DNA of 64,000 nucleotides from Thermoanaerobaculia bacterium (GCA_963664405.1 OY761158.1:3008001-3072000); one strand, 5' to 3'; counted from the stretch's first letter, positions 32,079-55,731 are shown. Made by a program: numbers and translations. Notes: generated by a model from the sequence alone, not told the origin.

Positions 32079-35000
32079 ATGTCGATGTCGCGCTCATTCC
32101 TGTCGGTTCTGGTCCTGCTCGTCTCTCTGTGCCTGCCCGGCCTGGCGTTTGGCCAGGTCGCCGGTTCGGTGTCGGGAGTGGTGAAGGACGCGGAAGGCAA
32201 CGCCCTGCCGGGCGTTTCGGTTATCGTCAGTGGCGCGGCTCTTCAGCGAGAGAGCCTGCGCGCAGTCACCGATGCCGATGGCGCCTACCGAGTCTCGCCG
32301 CTGCCTCCGGGTGCTTACGCCATGCGCTTCGAGCTCGACAGCTTCGCCCCCCAGGGCTTCGACGAAATACGGGTAGGTGTCAACGCCCGCGTCACCCTGG
32401 ACTGGACTCTCCTGCCCGAGGCGGTGGCGGAGACCGTGGAGGTGCGGGGCGCGCTGCCTTTGATGGAGATCCAGAGGAGCGAGCTCGCGACCCGTATCGA
32501 AGAAGAGTCGATCGACAACCTGCCGTTGCAGAGCAGAAACGCCGAAGATCTCGTGGTCCTCGTGCCAGGCGTCACGCCTCGGCCGGCCGAGGTTCGCGAC
32601 CAGCAGTTCTCGATTTTCGGCGAGCGACCGTCGGCGACCAGCTTTCGCTACGACGGGGCCGACAATAACGATCCGCTCGACGGCGGGTCCTTCCAGCGCT
32701 ACGCCCAGGACGCCATTCAGGAGTTCGAGGTGGTCACCACCGGTTACCAGGCCGAGTTCGGACGCGCGCAGGCAGGGGTGATCAACGTGCTGACGCGCTC
32801 AGGCACCAATGCGGCCCAGGGCCGAGCCTTTTTCTTCAAGCGCAACGACGCCTGGGACTCCTCCAACGTCGAAGGTCAGGAGGCACCCGAGCTCTCGCGC
32901 GAGCAGTGGGGGCTTTCGCTGGGGGGCAAGTTGCGGCGGGACCGCGCCTTCTTCTTCGTCGCGGGCGAGCTCCTCGACGAAGAGCGTGGTCGCAACATCG
33001 ATTTCAGCACTGTGCCGCAGTGGGTCCAAGACGGCATTTCGACGGTGGGGGGCGAGGAGAACTTCGCCGCAGGCCCCAAGATCGACGGCGAGACGCTGCT
33101 GGGCAAGATCGACTTTCTTCCCAATGACGCCCAGCGCTGGACCCTGAGCCTCAATAGCACTGTGGACGATGCCGACGGCGATATCCCCAGCGGCATTGCC
33201 GGTGCGCTGGTCTTGCCCAGTGCGGCCCGGCTGCAGGAGCGGGATTCACTGGGGTGGACTCTGAATCAGAGCACCGTCCTCAGCCAGCGTGGCGTGCTTG
33301 ATTCGCACGTTCGCCTTCTCGATGGAGAGACCGGCACCAATCTCGACAAGAACGAGCGTGCCGAGGCCATCCTGCTTCTCTTTCGCAGTGGTTTCATCCA
33401 GACCGGCGCGCAGCTTCCGGGCGGTCGGGCCGAGCGGAATATCGACCGCTTCTCCGTCGGCCAATCCTACAGTCGCCTGTCCGGCAGCCACGAGCTGAAG
33501 TTCGGCTATGAGTACCTCGACACATCTTTGGACGGCTTCGAAGAGGTTTCGAACGATGTGGAGTACTCGGCCTACTTTCTCTTTCCCAATGCCATCGATC
33601 TCAACGAGGACCTCTTCCAGAGATTCGGCTTCGAGCACGCGGCGGCCCGCTTCTTCTTCCTCTCCGCCAACCCCGATGGCTCGCTCAATCTCGATATCGA
33701 CAATGAAGACATCGGCCTCTATGGCCAGGACAAGTTGCAGATCAGTGACAACGTCATCATCGACATCGGCCTGCGCTACGACCAAGCCAGCCTCTTTGAT
33801 AATGACGACGACAACTTCGCCCCCCGCTTCGGTCTCACCTGGGACGTGGGCGGCAAGCACCGCACCGTGGTCAAGGCAAGCGCAGGGCTTTTCTACGATC
33901 AGAACGCCCTCATCGCCTCTACCGGCGTGCCCGAGAAGGGTGGCTTTTTCCGACTCAACGGCTTCGATGTCGCGCTTCCACGCCTCGGCGCTCCTTATAC
34001 CGACTCGCTGATCGACCTGGTCATCACATCAGGTTTCCCGATCGGGGGTGGGGCAAGAAGCCCGGCCGAGAATCCGCTCTACGCCCAGTTCGCGGCGGAC
34101 CTGCGCGCCAATCCTCTCCACCTCTACAACCTGCTCGGCATCAACGTGGCCGATGCCGCGAATCCACCTCTGGTCACCGCCGACAACGTGCAGGGGCTGA
34201 GTGGCCTCGGCCCCGACCAGGTGACCAGCTTGCTCGAGACCACTTATCCCGGCACCGACTGGATCTTTTTCGATGTGCCCGGTGGATCAGTCCTCGGCGA
34301 CCGAGTGCTCAGCTTCCTCCCGCGGGGTCCCCTGGACGTGACGCGTACGCTGCAGACCTACGACCGCGACCTGGTGCCCTCGACCGAGGCCTACACCCTC
34401 GGTGTCGAGCACCAACTGGGCTCCAACTACCGGGTCGCGCTCAATCTGGTGAAGCGTGAGACGAGAGACCTTCTCACCACTCGCATCGTCAACCTCTTCG
34501 ACGTTGCGCCAGGCGAGCCCGGCTTCGGCACCACGACCGACGGCGGCCCGCGGATCAGCGAGGTCGGCTACGACGGCGTCATCGACTACGAAGGTGCGAC
34601 AGTGAGCTTGTGGAGACCCTTCCGAGATCGCTGGGGCTTCATGTTCTCTTATACCTACTCGGAGAACGACGACAATCTTCTGACCGGGAACGTGGGCTCG
34701 GGGTTCAGTAACAACAATCATCCGGAGTTCGACTACGGCACCTCGAGCCTTTCGGTCCCGAACGTCGCCGTCGCCAACGTCAGTGCGCTTCTGCCTCTCG
34801 ATTTCCGTGTGAGCGCGATCGCCTTCTACCGTGACGGTCCGGCATTTTCCCCCAGGGGCATCGTCGACACGGACGGCGATGGTCTCGTTGATCAGAGAGA
34901 TCTCAGCCAGCCTCGCAACGCTTTCCGCGTTGACGAGATCTTGAACGTCGACTTGCGCGTCGAGAAGCCCTTCTCTCTTGGCAACGGCCACGAGATATCC

Positions 35001-35147
35001 CTTCTGGTGGACGCTTTCAACATCACCAACGAAGACAATGTGGCCGGCGTAAACAACGTGTCGGGCCCCGACTTCGGTACCCCCAATAGCTTTCTCCCGG
35101 GCCGCGAGATCCAGGTCGGGGTGCGCTACTTTCTCGGCGGTCGCTAG
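32079..35147 (+). CDS. TonB-dependent receptor with carboxypeptidase-regulatory-like N-domain (Oar type)
   Basis: Signal peptide, AIQEFEVVTTGYQAEFGRA, TRSGTN, NFAPRFG.TWD and terminal GREIQVGVRYF. Confidence 0.92.
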   Translation: MSMSRSFLSVLVLLVSLCLPGLAFGQVAGSVSGVVKDAEGNALPGVSVIVSGAALQRESLRAVTDADGAYRVSPLPPGAYAMRFELDSFAPQGFDEIRVGVNARVTLDWTLLPEAVAETVEVRGALPLMEIQRSELATRIEEESIDNLPLQSRNAEDLVVLVPGVTPRPAEVRDQQFSIFGERPSATSFRYDGADNNDPLDGGSFQRYAQDAIQEFEVVTTGYQAEFGRAQAGVINVLTRSGTNAAQGRAFFFKRNDAWDSSNVEGQEAPELSREQWGLSLGGKLRRDRAFFFVAGELLDEERGRNIDFSTVPQWVQDGISTVGGEENFAAGPKIDGETLLGKIDFLPNDAQRWTLSLNSTVDDADGDIPSGIAGALVLPSAARLQERDSLGWTLNQSTVLSQRGVLDSHVRLLDGETGTNLDKNERAEAILLLFRSGFIQTGAQLPGGRAERNIDRFSVGQSYSRLSGSHELKFGYEYLDTSLDGFEEVSNDVEYSAYFLFPNAIDLNEDLFQRFGFEHAAARFFFLSANPDGSLNLDIDNEDIGLYGQDKLQISDNVIIDIGLRYDQASLFDNDDDNFAPRFGLTWDVGGKHRTVVKASAGLFYDQNALIASTGVPEKGGFFRLNGFDVALPRLGAPYTDSLIDLVITSGFPIGGGARSPAENPLYAQFAADLRANPLHLYNLLGINVADAANPPLVTADNVQGLSGLGPDQVTSLLETTYPGTDWIFFDVPGGSVLGDRVLSFLPRGPLDVTRTLQTYDRDLVPSTEAYTLGVEHQLGSNYRVALNLVKRETRDLLTTRIVNLFDVAPGEPGFGTTTDGGPRISEVGYDGVIDYEGATVSLWRPFRDRWGFMFSYTYSENDDNLLTGNVGSGFSNNNHPEFDYGTSSLSVPNVAVANVSALLPLDFRVSAIAFYRDGPAFSPRGIVDTDGDGLVDQRDLSQPRNAFRVDEILNVDLRVEKPFSLGNGHEISLLVDAFNITNEDNVAGVNNVSGPDFGTPNSFLPGREIQVGVRYFLGGR

Positions 35148-35148
35148 G

Positions 35149-36411
35149 GTGTCCCAGGCCTCTGTCGATGCGGTCCTCGCCGAGGTCGAGGAGGCCGCCG
35201 ACGAGCTCGTCGAGCTCGCTCTCGAGCTGATACGGGTACCGACCGTCAACCCGCCGGGAGAGCACTACCGCGACTGCGCAGAGCTCATAGGTCGCCGGCT
35301 GGAGGACTTCGGATTCGAGGTCGATTACCCGTGCCCCCGCCAGCAGCCCAGCCCCGCTTACCCTCGAGTGAACGTCGTTGGGACTCGCCGGGGTGAGGAG
35401 GCTCACCCGATGGTCCATTTGAATGGCCACTTCGATGTTGTGCCTGTCGGTGACGGCTGGACGGTCGATCCCTTCGCCGGAGTGGTGCGCGACGGTCGCG
35501 TCTATGGTCGGGGCTCCGCCGACATGAAGTGCGGCCTGGCGGCGGCGATGATCGCTGCCGAGGCGCTACGTCGCGCCGGGGTGCCGCTGCGTGGCTCGAT
35601 CGAGATCAGTGGCACCGTCGATGAGGAGAGTGGCGGTTTCGCCGGCATGGCCGAGCTCGCCGAGACCGGGCGAGTCTCGGCGGCTCGTACCGATCACGTG
35701 ATCATTCCGGAGCCTTTGAACGTCGACCGTATCTGCGTAGGTCATCGCGGCGTCTACTGGTTCAAGGTGTCGGCGCGCGGGCGGATCGGCCACGGCAGCA
35801 TGCCCTTCCTCGGCTCGAGCGCGATCGACCCCATCGGTCGGCTGCTCGAGAAGGTGCGCACCGAGCTTCGGCCGGCGATCGCTATGCGGCGAACGGAGAT
35901 GCCGGTAGTCCCGGAAGAGGCGCGACATGGCTCGATCAATGTCAACGCGATAATGGGCGGGCAGGCGGGGCTCGACCCCCAGACACCCTGTGTCGCCCAC
36001 GCCGGCGAAGCGATCTTCGACCGCCGCTACCTCTTGGAAGAGGGCTTCGAGGCGACCCGCCAGGAAGTGCGCGACCTTGTCGAGGCGGTCGCGGCCGAGG
36101 ATTCATCGTGGCGTCTCGAGATCGAGGATCTGCTAACGGTGCGACCGACCCAGACCCCCGACGGCGATCCGCTGGTGCAGTGCCTGGAGAACAGCATCTC
36201 CAAGCTGCTCGGTCGCCCGGCCACCCTGGTGGCGAGCCCCGGTACCTACGACCAAAAGCACGTCACCCAGATCGGGGGTGTCGCAAGCTGCGTGGCCTAT
36301 GGCCCCGGCGTTCTCGAGCAGGCGCACCAGCCCGACGAGTGGTGCGATGTGCGCGACATGGTCGATGCGGCTAGAGTGATGGCGCTAACCCTCCTCGACT
36401 TGGTTGGATGA
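35149..36411 (+). CDS. M20 metallohydrolase, ArgE/DapE family
   Basis: NGHFDVVP, GRGSADMK, VDEESGG, IIPEP and AHQPDE. Confidence 0.92.
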   Translation: MSQASVDAVLAEVEEAADELVELALELIRVPTVNPPGEHYRDCAELIGRRLEDFGFEVDYPCPRQQPSPAYPRVNVVGTRRGEEAHPMVHLNGHFDVVPVGDGWTVDPFAGVVRDGRVYGRGSADMKCGLAAAMIAAEALRRAGVPLRGSIEISGTVDEESGGFAGMAELAETGRVSAARTDHVIIPEPLNVDRICVGHRGVYWFKVSARGRIGHGSMPFLGSSAIDPIGRLLEKVRTELRPAIAMRRTEMPVVPEEARHGSINVNAIMGGQAGLDPQTPCVAHAGEAIFDRRYLLEEGFEATRQEVRDLVEAVAAEDSSWRLEIEDLLTVRPTQTPDGDPLVQCLENSISKLLGRPATLVASPGTYDQKHVTQIGGVASCVAYGPGVLEQAHQPDEWCDVRDMVDAARVMALTLLDLVG

Positions 36412-36430
36412 CGGCTACGAGGTGCTGAAC

Positions 36431-37486
36431 ATGATGAACGAGACCTTCTCCTGGTTTGTGCTCCCGCTCTTTGTGATGGCGGCCATGAGTCCGGCGCGAG
36501 GCGCCGAGAGGAGGGGTCTGACCGCGGTCGAAGGACTCAAGGTAGGTCACTTCACTCTCGACGAAAGGCCGACCGGGTGCACCGTGATCCTTGCCGAAGG
36601 CGGCGCGGTGGGGGGCGTCGACATTCGTGGCGGCGCGCCGGCGACCCGAGAGACGGATCTTCTCGATCCGGTGAACATGGTGCAGGAGATCCACGCGGTC
36701 GTGCTTTCAGGAGGAAGCGCCTTCGGGCTCGATTCCGCCGCCGGAGTGATGCGATATCTGGAGGAGAAGAAGATCGGCTTCCCGGTCGGTGTCGGTGTCG
36801 TCCCTATCGTCGTCGGCGCCAGCCTCTTCGATCTCGGTATCGGTGGTCGACCCGAGATTCGGCCGGACGCGGCGTGCGGCTACGCGGCGGCAAAAGCCGC
36901 TGGCAGCGGAGAGGTAGCCGAGGGCAACGTCGGTGCCGGCGCCGGGGCGACGGTTGGCAAGCTTGGTGGAAGGGGGCGCGCGATGAAGGCGGGCATCGGC
37001 ACCGCTGCGATCGAGCTCGAAGACGGGCTGGTGGTCGCGGCCCTGGTCGCGGTCAATGCGATCGGCGACATCATCGATCCGGCGACCGGCCGCACCGTCG
37101 CGGGTGTCCGTAGCGAGGATGGCCGCAGCTTGGCCGACGCTCGTGTGCTGCTCCGCTCCGGCGGCGGGATCCCGCCGCGGCCGCTCGAAAATACGACCCT
37201 CGGCGTGGTCGCGACCAATGCCAATCTCACCAAAGCCGAGGCGACCAAGATGGCGCAGATGGCCCACGACGGCTACGCCCGAGCGATTGCTCCGGCCCAT
37301 ATGCAGGGCGACGGGGACACGATCTTCGCGCTGGCGACCGGCGCCCTCGGCCGAGGCGCGGATGTCTCGAGGCTCGGGGCGCTCGGCGCCGACGTCATGG
37401 CGCAGGCGATCGTGCGCGCCGCGTTTGCGGCGAAGGGCATCGAAGGGCTGCCTGCGGCCGGCGACCTCGATGGCGAGAACCCTTGA
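36431..37486 (+). CDS. P1/S58 (DmpA-like) peptidase, probably secreted; start uncertain
   Basis: TGCTVI, RGGAPATRETDLL, LSGGSAFGL, ENTTLGVVATNA and DGDTIF. Confidence 0.9.
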   Translation: MMNETFSWFVLPLFVMAAMSPARGAERRGLTAVEGLKVGHFTLDERPTGCTVILAEGGAVGGVDIRGGAPATRETDLLDPVNMVQEIHAVVLSGGSAFGLDSAAGVMRYLEEKKIGFPVGVGVVPIVVGASLFDLGIGGRPEIRPDAACGYAAAKAAGSGEVAEGNVGAGAGATVGKLGGRGRAMKAGIGTAAIELEDGLVVAALVAVNAIGDIIDPATGRTVAGVRSEDGRSLADARVLLRSGGGIPPRPLENTTLGVVATNANLTKAEATKMAQMAHDGYARAIAPAHMQGDGDTIFALATGALGRGADVSRLGALGADVMAQAIVRAAFAAKGIEGLPAAGDLDGENP

Positions 37487-50598: not shown

Positions 50599-51615
50599 TG
50601 GAGCTACCCCGATTTGGTGGACACCGCTGAAAGTCCGAGAATGGACTTGGAGGTGTTCAGGAGATGGGTCAGTCACGGAGAAGATTCAGCGAGGAGTTCA
50701 AGCGCGAGGCGGTCCGCCTGGCTTACGGGACGGGGCGTTCGGTCGTCGAGGTGGCTCGGGAGTTGGATGTGCGTGCGGAGCAGATTCGTCGTTGGCGCAA
50801 GCATTTCGAGCACCGGGAGTCGTTGGGATCGGAGCCCGATCCCGCGGAGGAGGTCAAGCGCCTTCGTCGCGAGCTGGCTCGGGTGAAGCAGGAGCATGCG
50901 ATCCTAAAAAAAGCCTTGGCGATCTTCTCGGAGACGCAGCGATGCGTCTGAGTGTGGCGCAGCGTGTCGCGGTGTCGTTTCCGGTGGCGCAGGTATGTAG
51001 CGTCCTGGGAGTGTCCCGCAGCGGCTACTACGCACGTCTCGGGCGCGGTGAATCGGCCCGTGTGCGAGAAGATCGCCGACTCAAGCAGCAGATTCTGGCG
51101 GTGCATGTGGAGGCACGGCAGCGCTACGGGACGCCTCGTGTCGAGCGCGCGCTGCGCCGGTCGGGGACGCGGACGTCTCGCAAGCGCGTGGCGCGTTTGC
51201 GTCGTGAACTGGGATTGCGCACCCGCGACTCCCGCCGCTTCCGCGTGACGACCGATTCCGACCATCGCAAGCCAATCGCACCGAATCGCTTGCAGCGCAG
51301 CTTCACGTCCCGTGCTCGAGATCGCATCTGGGTCGGCGACATCACCTATCTGCGTGCCGGTGCGAGCTGGCTGTATCTCGCCGTGCTTCTGGACGTCTAT
51401 TCCCGCCGAGTGGTGGGATGGAGCCTCTCGAGCCGCATCGACGAGGGGCTTGTCCGCAAGGCCTTGGATCGAGCCCTAGCCGCTCGTCGGCCGGCCCGAG
51501 GCTGGATCCATCATACCGACCGAGGCGGCCAATACTGCGCGGACGACTACCGCGAGCGGGTCGACAAACTCGGAGGGGTCGCGAGCATGAGTCGCAAAGG
51601 CGATTGCTGGGACAA
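50599..51615 (+). mobile_element. IS3-family element (orfA 50664-50951, orfB truncated at KGDCWD)
   Basis: TG-starting IR, FSEEFKREAV, A7G slippery site 50906-50913, YGTPRV, WVGDITY and HHTDRGGQY. Confidence 0.88.
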
Positions 51616-51618
51616 GGG

Positions 51619-53712
51619 CTACGCTTCACACTGCACCTCCTCCGTAGGGTTCGGTTCGACGTCGAGGCGGCGCCGTCGTTGCGAGAGTTTTCGGCCCTGC
51701 ATTTTGACGGGCGGGTCGTCGCCGAGATGCTCGTAGAGGCACTCGTTCTTGTCGTTGTAGGCATGGGCACGCAGCAGGCCGTGGTTGCGCCATGTCTTCA
51801 CCGTGTGGGTCGCGACACCCAGTAGGTCAGCCATCTCTTCGAGGGTAAGCATTCCCCCCTCACGCAGTCGGTCGTACCTCTTCTTGATGTCGTAGTCACG
51901 GCGCAGTCGCCGGACGATGCCGGCGTGAAATCGTTTGCCCTCTCCGGAGAGATGGCCTCTGTCGTTGAGGATGCTCGCAATCTCGGCCTCGGTGTAGTCA
52001 TCAAGCAGGGTATCAATCTCGGCAACGACCTGTTTCGATGTTTGGCGTAACTCCCATGCTGTCGGCGGAATGGGCAGTTTGAGACTTCGTGTCGCGCCAC
52101 CTCGGAAGCGGACACCGACAACGATCTCGTCGCCCTTCGTCAAGGTGACGTCCTCGATGAGCAAGCGCACCATGCGCTTGCGCTCGCGTTGAGGCGTCTT
52201 CGGGTCGTTCCACAACCGCGGGAAGTCGGTGGCGAGGGCGAGGATCTCTTCTCGTTGCTGGTCGCCGAGCTGTTGGTGATCTTGCTGGCGGCGCTGCTCG
52301 AGCTCCTCCTGTGCGTCGTGCAGCCCGCGCAGCCTCTCGTTCCACTCGGCCTCGAGGACATCCACCACGAGGCGGTTCCCCGGATCGACCTCCATGAAGC
52401 GACGCCGAGCCAAGTCAGCCTCCTGTCGAGCTCGCTGTACGTGCTGGCGCCGCAGGGAATCGGCCTCGTGGATCCGTGCATCGAGCTCGACCTGGACTTT
52501 CAGTGCAACCTCCAGAGTCACAGGCGTAACCGTCTCCACAAGCAGCTCTCCGATGGCCCGATCGATGCCCTTGCCCGGGATCGACTGACACTTGGGTGTC
52601 GCGGTGTCGATGCCCTCGCGCTGGCAGACGTACTCGGGCCACTGAGTGCCCCTGCGCGTGTGATAGCGGACCGTCATCCGATGGCCACAAACGCCGCAGA
52701 GGACCAAGCCCTGCACCAGCGCTGGCCCCTCGCGCGGTGGGCTCTTGCGCCGGTCTCGGCCGTGGGCCTGGGCGTTGTCTCGTAGTCGTCTCAGGTTTTC
52801 TTCGAATTGTTCCCAGGGAATGTAACCGGGGTGCGCGTCGAGCAACAGCGCGGTCCACTCCTCACGCGGAAGCGACTTGACCTCGATGGTGCCGTTGACG
52901 CGCTTTTGCGTGTGAGTGCGACCGAAACAGAAAGCGCCAGCGTAGCGGGGATTGTGCAGCACCCTCAGGACGCGCCAGTGGCGCAACGACTCCCACAACA
53001 GCTCTCCCTTGTGGGGGCCGAAGCGCGGCCGGCGCGGAAACCGCAAGCCTTGCTCGCGGAAGTGTTTGACCGTCGCCGAGGCCGAGCCCATACGCTCGAA
53101 GGTCTCGAACAGGTGCTCGAAGCTCCGTTGGACCTGGCCGTCGGGATCTAACACCACGTTGCCGGTCGGGTCGTAGAGTAGGCCGACGGGTAACGGGGTT
53201 TGCAGCGCACCTCGGCGCGCCTGATTCAGAATGCCTCCGCGCAGCCGAGCCCGCATCACGTGAAGCTCCGCCTCGCTCATCGTGCCCTTGAGCCCGAGCA
53301 GAAGGCGATCGTTGAAATCACTCGGGCTGTAGACCCCGTCCTCGTCAAGGATCAGCGTGTCGGTCAGCGCGCAGATCTCCAGCAGTCGATGCCAGTCCGT
53401 GCTATTGCGTGCCAGGCGCGAAACCTCCAGCCCGAGAACGATCCCGGCTCGGCCCATACCGACCTCGCCGACGAGCTTCTGAAAGCCCTCGCGGTCGACG
53501 CTGGAAGCTGCGGACTTACCCAGGTCGGAGTCGATCACGATGACTCGCTCGATGGGCCATCCCATCGCCACCGCGCGCTCTCGCAACGCGTACTGGCGTC
53601 TCGTGCTCTCCGTATTCTCGAACACCTGGCGCACGGTCGACTGGCGAACATACAGGTACGCATCGCGTCGCAGGTGGCTTGGGGTCACTTTCTGGTGGGC
53701 GCTTGCGCTCAT
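51619..53712 (-). CDS. Large serine recombinase (Y4bA-like)
   Basis: YLYVRQST (catalytic Ser), EVSRLARN, LLGLKGTMSEAE, LHNPRYAG, zinc ribbon CGVCG..C..C, coiled coil and C-terminal HTH. Confidence 0.93.
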   Translation of the reverse strand: MSASAHQKVTPSHLRRDAYLYVRQSTVRQVFENTESTRRQYALRERAVAMGWPIERVIVIDSDLGKSAASSVDREGFQKLVGEVGMGRAGIVLGLEVSRLARNSTDWHRLLEICALTDTLILDEDGVYSPSDFNDRLLLGLKGTMSEAELHVMRARLRGGILNQARRGALQTPLPVGLLYDPTGNVVLDPDGQVQRSFEHLFETFERMGSASATVKHFREQGLRFPRRPRFGPHKGELLWESLRHWRVLRVLHNPRYAGAFCFGRTHTQKRVNGTIEVKSLPREEWTALLLDAHPGYIPWEQFEENLRRLRDNAQAHGRDRRKSPPREGPALVQGLVLCGVCGHRMTVRYHTRRGTQWPEYVCQREGIDTATPKCQSIPGKGIDRAIGELLVETVTPVTLEVALKVQVELDARIHEADSLRRQHVQRARQEADLARRRFMEVDPGNRLVVDVLEAEWNERLRGLHDAQEELEQRRQQDHQQLGDQQREEILALATDFPRLWNDPKTPQRERKRMVRLLIEDVTLTKGDEIVVGVRFRGGATRSLKLPIPPTAWELRQTSKQVVAEIDTLLDDYTEAEIASILNDRGHLSGEGKRFHAGIVRRLRRDYDIKKRYDRLREGGMLTLEEMADLLGVATHTVKTWRNHGLLRAHAYNDKNECLYEHLGDDPPVKMQGRKLSQRRRRLDVEPNPTEEVQCEA

Positions 53713-53996
53713 GCGTGGTTCTCCTGTAGATGGCTGAGAGCCATGGCGGCCAGCACGTTGATCAGATCCGCGCTCGTATCGTGAGGCAGTGCGGACGGCC
53801 TGGCTATCTCGGCGGACGGTGCCGGGGTCGGCGCGGGCATCTTGGACCCCTGTTCAACCCAAGCGGCCAGCCCTTGTCGCAGGAGAACGGCCAAGCCGAA
53901 CCGAACCGATAGGAGCTGCCGCTTCGCCGCATGTCCTCGGAGCTCCTCGTAGCGAGCGACATGGGCCGGAGCGTTCTGCTGGCGTGTCGCGCTCAT
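53709..53996 (-). CDS. Small hypothetical protein (Y4bB-like)
   Basis: ATGA overlaps on both sides; YEELR..GLAVLLRQGLAAW..LAAMAL. Confidence 0.7.
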   Translation of the reverse strand: MSATRQQNAPAHVARYEELRGHAAKRQLLSVRFGLAVLLRQGLAAWVEQGSKMPAPTPAPSAEIARPSALPHDTSADLINVLAAMALSHLQENHA

Positions 53997-54460
53997 GGCC
54001 GGCGTTTTTTTTCCTGGCGAGCCAGGGCTCGCTCAATGCTGCGCGGATGGATCGAGATGCCAAAGCGCTTCTGCACCCACTCGGCCAGGGCGGTTGCATC
54101 TGCGTCCGGCTCCCCCTCCAGCCTGTCGTGCAGGGCCTCGACGACCTCCTCGGATAGCTTGTGGGCGCGGCGCGGCCCCGGCTTTCTTGGCAGCAACGCG
54201 GGTAGGCCGCCTTCTTCGTAAACCACCTGGGCGTGGTAGAAGGATGGGCGCGACAACCCGAAGCTTGCCGCGCTCCGGCTCACCGTGTGTCTGTCCACCC
54301 GGACACGGCGCAGCATCTCGTACTTGACCTGCACGAGGTCTCGAGGGTCGAAGAACTCGCTCGAGGTGAACAAATCGTCCGAGACCTTCTCCGGCTGGGG
54401 ATGAAGGCACCCTCGTTGACGGAGGGCCTCGGCTTTCGGGTCGGGTCTGCGTCGCGGCAT
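53993..54460 (-). CDS. HTH protein (Y4bC-like)
   Basis: GAGGAG SD; FFDPRDLVQVKYEMLR, FGLSRPSFY, PGPRRAHKL and IHPRSIERAL. Confidence 0.8.
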   Translation of the reverse strand: MPRRRPDPKAEALRQRGCLHPQPEKVSDDLFTSSEFFDPRDLVQVKYEMLRRVRVDRHTVSRSAASFGLSRPSFYHAQVVYEEGGLPALLPRKPGPRRAHKLSEEVVEALHDRLEGEPDADATALAEWVQKRFGISIHPRSIERALARQEKKRRP

Positions 54461-54488
54461 GATCGTCTCCTCATGGAATGTAATTCTA

Positions 54489-54516
54489 ATTATGCCTCTC
54501 ATGGATCCTCTGTCAA
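54489..54516 (-). promoter_or_regulatory. Sigma70-like promoter of the recombinase operon
   Basis: TTGACA-N16-CATAAT on the minus strand, ~30 nt upstream of the HTH gene, in an AT-rich patch. Confidence 0.6.
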
Positions 54517-54675
54517 GGGGTGTCCACCAAGAGAGTACCGATAGATCGTGCATTAAATTGGCCTATCTCTACACTCCTGGTCACACTCCGGCACTCTTCC
54601 CGACATAATTGTGATTACATTCACGGCATAATCTCCTTTACGCACGGTGCCCCTCAACCGTCCTCACGCAGGTCT

Positions 54676-54970
54676 TCATCGCTCGCTCTCCCGGGTCAGC
54701 TTGGCGAGCTCGAGCAGGTCGGCCACGCGGTACATCGATCTGCCTGCGGAGATGACAACCACGGGGTCCTCGGCCACCGCACTCGTCCAACGCGCTGGAA
54801 GGGAGCGTAGCTCCTCGCATTCATCCAGGTAGAAGACCCGGTCCTCGCCCCAGCACTGGCGATAGTGAGCCAGCTCGTACTCACGCCCCAACAGCGGGTG
54901 GAACGGATGGGTTACCCGAAAACGTCGTTGCTCACAATCTGTATCGGGTGCATTCGACCATTGAGCCCAA
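54676..54970 (-). CDS. Y4bD/Y4pK-type (DUF5372-like) protein lacking an in-element start codon
   Basis: FRVTHPFHPL.G.E, WGEDRV, SLPARWT and DLLELA. Confidence 0.78.
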
Positions 54971-55731
54971 AGGCCGCGTCGAGCGCGCAATCCGCTTCCT
55001 GCGAAGCTCGTTCTTCGGCGCCCGAACGGTGAGCGATTTGGATCGTCTGAATCGGCAGGTCCTGGAATGGTGCCAGAGGTCGCAGCGCAGACCCTGGCCG
55101 CAGGACCGACAGCGAACCGTGAAAAGCGCCCTGGCCCAGGAACGGCCTCGACTGCTTGAGCTTCCCGGAGACGACGTCGAAACCGATCTGCGAGTGGAGA
55201 TCAAGGTCAGAAAGACGCCGATCGTGCGTTTCGACCTCAACGACTACTCGGTGCCGCACAGTCATGTGCAGAGGACCGTCACGCTCCTCGCCAGCGAGCA
55301 TCGGGTGCGGATCCTCGATGGCCAGGAGCTCCTCGCCGAGCACCCTCGCTCGTACTCCCGGGGCGAGCAGATCCTCGATCCTCAACATCTCGAGGAGCTC
55401 CTCGCTCACAAACGCAGGGCCCGACGACACCGGGGCTTCCATCGGCTGTTTTCCGCTGTGCCTCGATGCGAAGAGCTGATGCAGCAGCTCGCCGAGCGAG
55501 GCGAGAACCTCGGAACGCAGAATCCTCGAGGTTGTGCGGTCTCACGGAGAGATCTCGCTGTTGGAGCTCCTGGCTGAGCGGCACCGGTAAAGCCGGAGGC
55601 TGACCGAGGCCGCGCGGGTGCCGTTCGAGTAGGAGCCGGCGGACTGGAATCGCGGTGCGTGGTTCAGGAGCGCTTCGCGCACGGCTTTGTCGAGTCGCTG
55701 GGGGCCGTACTGGCGCAGGAGTCGGACTAGT
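54969..55731 (+). pseudogene. IS21 IstA C-terminal part; the last ~200 nt are inverted
   Basis: KGRVERAIRFLR, VRFDLNDYSVP and HPRSY. The continuation LLRQYG..AVREAL..VRPHNL reads on the minus strand at 55521-55731. Confidence 0.8.

Follow-up and report, generated by a model that had tools for sequence, protein, structure and literature searches.

A translation start divided between the two ends of a serine-recombinase element, and a predicted recombinase cofactor that it would serve

Introduction

How can a gene be translated when the mobile element that carries it offers no start codon in front of it? This question is raised by an element within a stretch of 64,000 nucleotides from a Thermoanaerobaculia bacterium (GCA_963664405.1 OY761158.1:3008001-3072000), which we call the window and whose positions, counted from its first letter, are used throughout. 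The element (51616-54968, with AA on each side) is one of five near-identical copies in the source genome, which is one 6.78-Mb contig, and it holds four genes, all on the minus strand, in the order DUF5372 gene, helix-turn-helix (HTH) gene, small open reading frame (ORF) and 697-aa large serine recombinase. A sequence-only reading of the window had proposed that the DUF5372 ORF acquires its Shine-Dalgarno (SD) sequence and start codon only across attP, the site formed when the two ends of the element are joined, and that the product, made only from the excised circle, may act as a directionality, integration or targeting factor. The matter reaches beyond this locus, since the choice between excision and integration in small serine-recombinase elements is an open question, and these elements have no phage-style regulatory circuit. 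We find that the start signals of the gene do lie at the opposite end of the element and that relatives from many phyla keep both the start and the reading frame across the join, and a structural model places the product on the recombinase.

The start of the DUF5372 gene lies at the opposite end of the element

The DUF5372 ORF (54990..54676) matches PF17342 over profile positions 1-73 of 78 (E 2e-20, 72.8 bits against a cut-off of 25), and no NCBIfam model for the protein matched at E up to 0.01. Between the crossover core and the HPFHP motif, a scan of the window copy found no ATG, GTG or TTG in the DUF5372 frame, exactly as had been claimed. On the minus strand at the recombinase end of the element, the sequence reads GGAGG, 6 nt, GTG, 11 nt and then the TT of the core, in frame with DUF5372, and joining the two ends by coordinates in silico gives an in-frame ORF of 102 aa. 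In this joined ORF the far end contributes the ribosome-binding site, the start and the first four and a third codons, which overlap the last codons of the recombinase gene, so the earlier statement that these recombinase codons supply GGAGG-N6-GTG for a 102-aa protein is correct. The two arms and the AA cores around which the join was made (GGTGCA-N11-AGCCC, AA, GGGCT-N11-TGCACC) likewise read as that statement had them. Because the start signals are at the opposite end, there is no complete ORF until the two ends meet at attP, and this observation is confirmed for the window copy.

The position of the gene relative to transcription signals points the same way. A scan for promoter-like sites found 2 in the element, against 0.4 expected in shuffles, and the sole strong one on the gene strand is TTGACA-16-CATAAT. 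In the integrated element the DUF5372 gene would therefore stand upstream of the only promoter-like site of its strand, while in a circle it would become the last, translationally coupled gene of an operon, behind the HTH gene, the small ORF and the recombinase gene.

Relatives keep the start and the frame across the join

We used the window DUF5372 protein as a query and found 338 DUF5372 proteins; a scan of one genome per species then gave 79 loci from many phyla. The HTH gene follows DUF5372 in 71 of the 79 loci, and the recombinase gene follows as well in 66. Seven of the 79 have DUF5372 with no HTH or recombinase match, and L050, the one of these that was inspected, proved to be a remnant with an unrelated ORF behind it. 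The recombinase C-terminus is present together with the HPFHP region in 51 loci (50 and the window), and the 46 in which both ends could be defined automatically were analysed; these fall into 33 clusters at 90% nucleotide identity.

An ATG or GTG stands exactly 11 nt before the core in all 46 loci. When the ends are joined, the ORF is in frame and free of stops in 45 of the 46, and it is in frame in 32 of the 33 clusters, so the frame across the joined ends is not random, as the sequence-only reading had anticipated. Counted by cluster, the start codon is ATG in 20 and GTG in 13, with an SD-like sequence in 32 of 33. Between the start codon and HPFHP, all 33 clusters are free of stops in the DUF5372 frame; of the two alternative frames, one is free of stops in 2 clusters and the other in 4, and each holds 58 stops. 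The distance from core to HPFHP is 57, 60, 66 or 69 nt (63 nt in the Sinorhizobium NGR234 copy), all multiples of three, which means that every insertion or deletion has preserved the frame.

The position of the recombinase stop codon relative to this start is far less constant. By cluster it lies at +8 (18 clusters), at +1 as an ATGA or GTGA overlap (10), at -11 (3), at -20 (1) or at -50 (1). With five different stop positions, the SD-start motif is kept whether this stretch codes for the recombinase tail, is read in a different frame or does not code at all. Within the DUF5372 gene itself, codons -4 to -1 before HPFHP vary chiefly at their third positions, and thus coding reaches upstream of the valine codon that lies two codons before the motif.

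The sequence-only reading expected the same arrangement in homologs ending in EVQYE, whose TAT GAA would provide an ATG, and such endings are real (L030, L035, L045, L053-55, L064). Plasmid copies in Sinorhizobium NGR234, Burkholderia and Rhodococcus behave like the others in all three cases analysed; two further plasmid loci (L130, L132) were excluded from the join test, the recombinase being missing or fragmented. In RefSeq, the DUF5372 gene of plasmid pNGR234a is annotated from an internal GTG, and the small ORF is named 'transposase'. The y4b names are absent from the RefSeq annotation of pNGR234a even though the four-gene module is there, which leaves the earlier label 'Y4bD' unconfirmed. 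As a separate observation, the NGR234 copy (L128, pNGR234a 33989-37258) has a GTG directly followed by an ATG at the far-end start position.

The joined form occurs in nature

One metagenome contig contains the joined ends. In L102, of 1068 bp, the C-terminal part of the recombinase gene leads through the joined site into a complete DUF5372 ORF of 102 aa, whose ATG overlaps the recombinase TGA as ATGA. A protein from another contig of 958 bp (P0121, 102 aa) is 83% identical to the L102 ORF and has the same junction-type N-terminus, and a third protein (P0136) has a geometry compatible with the junction type. The junction that had been proposed is thus present in natural DNA. Because the L102 contig is about 1 kb long, it possibly stems from a tandem pair of elements instead of a circle; we take the joined form to be the excised circle. 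Three contigs of 3.3-3.5 kb (L028, L055, L081) were considered as assembled circles and set aside, since they merely begin and end at the core, with a terminal overlap of at most 4 nt.

Taken with the comparison of relatives, this one natural junction contig makes the gating of the DUF5372 ORF by end-joining well supported at the level of sequence.

DUF5372 is predicted to sit on the recombinase where directionality factors act

An AlphaFold model of DUF5372, made with 68 sequences, has a five-stranded barrel and two helices with a mean pLDDT (predicted local distance difference test) of 81; confidence is low for the 10 N-terminal residues, the part that the att arm encodes. The nearest solved folds in Foldseek are SH3-like or KOW-like barrels (eS4, NdhS), generic matches at E 3e-3 or weaker. 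Barrels of these kinds often bind nucleic acid, and a circle-gated protein could accordingly act on DNA, either by repressing the operon promoter after the circle has formed or by helping to find the target in a transposase gene. The barrel fold would suit such a role, and the degenerate targets described below demand some means of recognition. DUF5372 has no match to a DNA-binding family, however, and the complex model presented next places its invariant HPFHP and its C-terminal helices on the recombinase with three controls near zero, so we regard an action on DNA as unlikely.

For the complex prediction, we used three chains, namely the recombinase and the small ORF with DUF5372 as the partner, along with three controls. 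The complex scored 0.67 versus 0.01 for the best control, all three controls being near zero. A mark of 0.67 was reached by 58 of 80 solved complexes and by 2 of 110 mismatched pairs, a calibration that is rough here because we supplied the alignments ourselves and folded three chains. Agreement between runs extends to at least 82% of contacts, and the partner pLDDT is at least 68. Recombinase residues 338-343, 394-413, 482-518 and 523-543 contact DUF5372 residues 21-26 (HPFHPL) and 68-96 (the C-terminal helices), and on the recombinase these contacts fall in the zinc ribbon and on the two sides of the coiled coil. No sequence relative was found in the PDB for DUF5372, nor for the recombinase beyond its catalytic domain; with neither protein having a close solved relative, the score is unlikely to reflect a solved complex already known to the predictor.

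Recombination directionality factors (RDFs) are described as binding large serine integrases at the zinc ribbon and the base of the coiled coil, as for the RDF of SPbeta (PMC11722253), and as having a common binding location with no common fold (PMC12286644). DUF5372 resembles the RDFs of large serine integrases in being a small protein without a conserved fold that is predicted to sit at the zinc ribbon and coiled-coil base. By the model, DUF5372 would bind the recombinase at this place, where directionality factors act. Among the three roles that the sequence-only reading had offered, it is the directionality-factor guess that the complex model favours.

A protein at this site could be an RDF in the usual sense, and circle-gated expression would then have a different meaning: circles would drive the excision of other copies in a positive feedback and would be held from re-integrating. 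The predicted contact site is indeed the one bound by excision-promoting RDFs (PMC11722253), and by a virtual-pulldown criterion such a partner would be named an RDF (PMC12286644). Known RDFs, however, are expressed from the integrated prophage to trigger excision, whereas DUF5372 has no start when integrated, which argues for a role opposite to that of a canonical RDF. A 3.35-kb circle with no recognised replication gene would also gain nothing from blocking its own integration, and a newly arrived circle would be kept from integrating. We consider the canonical role improbable.

A proposed circle-only factor and the points that weigh against it

The reading that we favour can now be put together. 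A four-gene, transposon-like element of 3.35 kb would owe its movement to its large serine recombinase, with crossover at an AA/TT core of 2 bp. DUF5372, made only once the ends are joined, would bind at the directionality site of the recombinase, and the element would in this way sense its own topological state. There the circle-only factor would compete with an excision-promoting partner that is made constitutively, either the small ORF or an Xis-like domain at the C-terminus of the recombinase. A protein available in the circle alone can be expected to work in favour of the circle, and for that reason we prefer a role that promotes integration or opposes excision, this sign being the least certain step of the scheme. 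As a whole, we judge it probable that DUF5372 is made only from the circle, binds the recombinase and pushes it towards integration or blocks re-excision. If so, a cofactor start that exists only with joined ends would answer the choice between excision and integration with no regulator at all, DNA topology itself being the signal. It could also serve synthetic biology as a compact reporter of recombination state, possibly with a new integrase-cofactor pair.

Several findings weigh against this reading. The first concern the comparison of relatives. One locus of the 46 (L056) is out of frame by 1 nt. Outside the 46, one locus has CAG at the start position and non-matching ends (L074), another has 2 extra bases relative to its relative L086 (L084), and two are decayed, with irregular ends (L067) or no right-end motif (L082); one more runs off the end of its contig (L090). 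The clusters are related to one another, so the counts overstate their independence, and the right-end motif lies within the recombinase-binding arm, so its conservation cannot by itself be credited to translation. Next, the joined form is scarce. Junction-type N-termini were seen in only 1 or 2 of 196 representative proteins read, and the joined site was found in no viral contig and nowhere in the assembled source genome. In the metagenome collection, a strict junction pattern returned 0 records and a relaxed one returned 3, one of them real (L102); the other two (L100, L101) had no recombinase or DUF5372 match and were taken as chance. Joined DNA therefore exists, and its rarity among assembled sequences is what one would expect of a transient circle. 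Finally, the promoter is only a consensus match, and the complex is a model whose set-up differs from that of the calibration set.

The remaining points concern starts that could be used in integrated copies, and they bear on the possibility that expression is not gated at all. Integrated copies would then make DUF5372 from a GTG or TTG within the element, from a non-canonical codon or from one that the flank supplies, and the far-end ATG or GTG would just be part of the recombinase binding site, within whose att arm it does lie. In 14 of the 33 clusters, the valine two positions ahead of HPFHP is encoded by GTG, which could yield a domain-only protein from a transcribed integrated copy, and a TTG is present in the arm of a few. 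Flank start codons exist at 13 of the 40 integrated loci that have an upstream in-frame stop, including the window copy, where, as in one other of the five copies, the IS21 flank gives an in-frame TTG 7 codons upstream with AGGAAG before it. In close database relatives, the called protein also begins with an L or M that lies 13 codons in.

No such start is conserved, however. At the valine position, the remaining 19 of the 33 clusters have GTA, GTC or ATT, the arm codon takes 14 different forms across loci, and a GTG at -4 or -8 or a TTG at -17 or -22 occurs in few clusters. An in-frame ATG between core and HPFHP is absent from all 33 clusters, and in 15 of them this stretch is free of start codons of any kind; homologs have no conserved start of their own within the element. 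In the flanks, the stretch from the upstream stop to the element lacks any start codon at 27 of the 40 loci, and in the other three of the five copies in the source genome a TGA stands 7 codons upstream and no start follows before the element begins. The third-position variation at codons -4 to -1, the stop-free joined frame in 33 of 33 clusters versus 2 and 4 for the other frames, the restriction of all indels to multiples of three and the location of the gene upstream of the only promoter-like site of its strand all speak against ungated expression as well, and we hold it to be very unlikely.

The frequent 94-aa and 79-aa DUF5372 proteins in databases ('MSNAPD' and 'MTHPFHP') were considered as cases of an in-element ATG and rejected: in every case sourced from the Joint Genome Institute (JGI) their first residue is a literal L or V, and the arm and valine codons are variable. 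We infer that these starts are gene-caller choices of TTG or GTG.

Relation to known elements

The nearest parallel is Tn4451/Tn4453 with its large serine recombinase TnpX, whose circular intermediate reportedly forms the tnpX promoter; the core of Tn4451 is GA. Like Tn4451, the present element is small, has a large serine recombinase and would form a non-replicating circle in which end-joining turns on a gene of the recombination system. Unlike Tn4451, where a promoter is assembled for the recombinase itself, the join here provides a ribosome-binding site, a start and four codons for an accessory gene. The promoter-like site of the recombinase operon is internal (54516-54489) and is not made by the joint, and the AA/TT core lies in transposase genes.

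Circles of IS911 and IS30 carry junction promoters. Circle-specific promoters are also described for ICEclc (Pcirc) and at the 3' end of ICEKp1 (PMC13023037). As in ICEclc and ICEKp1, excision would set a signal of one end before a gene at the other end, and expression would report the excised state. Those four systems, however, act in transcription, on genes for tyrosine integrases or DDE transposases, whereas here attP splits the translation start of a predicted recombinase cofactor.

In immunity of the type found in mycobacteriophage BPs, integration leads to a shorter, active repressor, and the integrase is of the tyrosine type. This integration-dependent immunity of BPs and its relatives places attP inside a gene (PMC4557955). 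The element resembles BPs in having attP within a gene, so that integrated and free forms encode different products. In BPs, however, attP lies in the 3' end of the repressor gene, while here it lies in the 5' start region, integration abolishes the start of the ORF, the enzyme is a serine recombinase and the gene is not of a repressor family.

Literature searches for 'DUF5372' found nothing, and searches for the y4b/y4p genes or for serine recombinases targeting transposase genes found nothing relevant, though supplements may hold family lists. Circle-dependent expression is known at the level of promoters; within the reach of our literature search, a serine-recombinase element that inserts in transposase genes and splits the translation start of a predicted recombinase cofactor is a variation on it not described before.

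Targets in transposase genes

We reconstructed the targets of 43 loci with both flanks by fixed-frame translation and Pfam; naming by the longest open frame was unreliable in this GC-rich DNA and was replaced. In 28 of the 43, the core lies in the codon for an N or K that precedes the catalytic E of a DDE transposase by four residues, in motifs such as KGRVER, NAYAER, NGKIER, DNxxxE and the NGxxEG of ISL3 (in general [N/K]xxxE; IS3, IS21, IS481/ISNCY and ISL3). One further locus (L030) has K in place of that catalytic E. Genes for IS91-type Y2 transposases, on the same strand as the element genes, account for 7 of 43, and L089 alone among the seven has a Pfam family. The 'ME' of an IS110 transposase is the target in 1, an HNH-like gene in 4 (a marginal Pfam match at 21.3 bits versus a cut-off of 21.4), and the remaining 2 are unassigned. 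Pfam confirms ISL3, IS110, Y2_Tnp and rve in the cases tested, and it gave no family for L072, L058 and the upstream part of L036. The plasmid copies fit the same pattern, in NGR234 (ISNCY, KGRVER) and in Burkholderia and Rhodococcus (IS3, DNAxxES divided after the D). Orientation is fixed, the element genes being antisense to the DDE genes.

By its target sequences, the family inserts at the catalytic-motif codons of transposase genes across phyla, and it looks like a parasite of insertion sequences (IS). These elements would then be hyper-parasites that reversibly switch insertion sequences off, which bears on IS control in IS-rich genomes. A wider proposal takes both halves together: a self-sensing switch in which the attP-split start of an anti-RDF-like cofactor flips the recombinase from excision to integration, in a family that parasitises transposons of at least five IS families through the DNA of transposase catalytic motifs ([N/K]xxxE of IS3, IS21, IS481/ISNCY and ISL3; 'ME' of IS110; the C-terminal region of IS91-type Y2). 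We advance this combination tentatively, as somewhat short of an even chance.

Genes, ends and copies of the element

The positions of the genes, ends and flanks are collected in Table 1. The product of the longest gene is, by its domain set, a large serine recombinase, which is predicted to catalyse attP x attB and attL x attR recombination; indirect signs of such activity are the repeated insertions at identical positions and the single contig with joined ends. Residues 18-169 match PF00239 (Resolvase, E 2.5e-17), with R23-Q24-S25-T26 invariant in 25 homologs, and PF07508 (Recombinase, 199-312) and PF13408 (Zn_ribbon_recom, 334-389) follow. Beyond the usual domains of large serine recombinases, the C-terminal region (~600-697, window 51619-51900) has an HTH_17/MerR-like stretch of excisionase type at residues 621-660, which could be a built-in directionality or DNA-targeting domain. 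The small ORF stop overlaps the recombinase ATG, and its start overlaps the HTH stop (ATGA overlaps). The HTH gene start was placed at the ATG behind GAGGAG.

Table 1. Coordinates of features of the element and its flanks in the window
Feature	Position	Strand	Remarks
Left flank, IS3-family orfB (5' part), interrupted behind the CWD codons at the AA of the next codon	50792..51613	+	NCBIfam transpos_IS3 E 7e-73, Pfam rve
AA crossover core, recombinase-side end (attL/attR junction)	51614..51615		Dinucleotide common to all 5 copies
End arm beside recombinase gene, GGGCT-N11-TGCACC	51616..51637		Inverted-repeat partner of 54947-54968
Large serine recombinase, 697 aa	51619..53712	-	Pfam PF00239, PF07508, PF13408, PF12728
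GGAGG (51640-36), 6-nt spacer, GTG (51629-27)	51627..51640	-	Ribosome-binding site and start serving DUF5372 only with ends joined
Small ORF, 95 aa, no family matched	53709..53996	-	Conserved in relatives
HTH protein resembling the N-terminal DNA-binding part of IS630/IS481 transposases	53993..54460	-	Pfam HTH_32/29/28, partial NCBIfam matches
Promoter-like site TTGACA-16-CATAAT, 11/12	54489..54516	-	Before HTH gene, downstream of DUF5372; consensus match
DUF5372 gene, in-element part, 97 codons + stop	54676..54969	-	Pfam PF17342; first codon TGG begins on second core base
End arm beside DUF5372, GGTGCA-N11-AGCCC	54947..54968		Doubles as codons 6-13 of the joined ORF
AA crossover core, DUF5372-side end	54969..54970		Same in all 5 copies
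Right flank, 3' part of IS21-family istA from K of KGRVER	54969..55577	+	NCBIfam transpos_IS21, Pfam Mu-transpos_C_2; same sequence in at least 22 other IS21 copies

The five copies in the source genome are 99-100% identical to one another, with the same arms and the same AA bounding each, and counting one core they are 3355, 3355, 3355, 3352 and 3352 bp long. Exact empty sites (18 nt, AA, 18 nt) are present in 21 intact IS21 copies of this genome, and the target of copy c1 has one such site. These empty sites hold a single AA, so insertion adds the element and one AA, as expected of a serine recombinase with a 2-bp core, and across the five copies and the 21 + 1 empty sites the crossover is conservative, with no target duplication beyond the core. 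Variant cores (CT, GA and AT; loci L037, L070 and L073) are each identical at both ends of their element. The AT core of L073 is palindromic, and orientation control at that site should consequently be lost.

The homes of the five copies are one IS21 istA gene, two IS481-type genes, one other rve-type gene and, for the window copy, an IS3 flank on the left with an IS21 flank on the right. Hybrid flanks are found only in the window copy, the other four having matching ones, and neither the reciprocal IS21-left/IS3-right junction nor a second copy of this IS3 was found in the source genome. The hybrid flanks likely arose by deletion between two former element copies.

Of the IS21 sites in this genome, 21 are empty versus 2 occupied; integration is either rare or tightly limited. 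A second, weaker promoter-like site (GTCACA-18-CATAAT, 9/12, 54580-54609 on the plus strand) runs antisense through DUF5372 and outward to the IS21 remainder. Copies c3 and c4 are without 3 bp (GAT, window 54462-54464) between GAGGAG and the ATG of the HTH gene and have 7 further intergenic differences, and they may represent, with the other copies, two expression variants of the operon.

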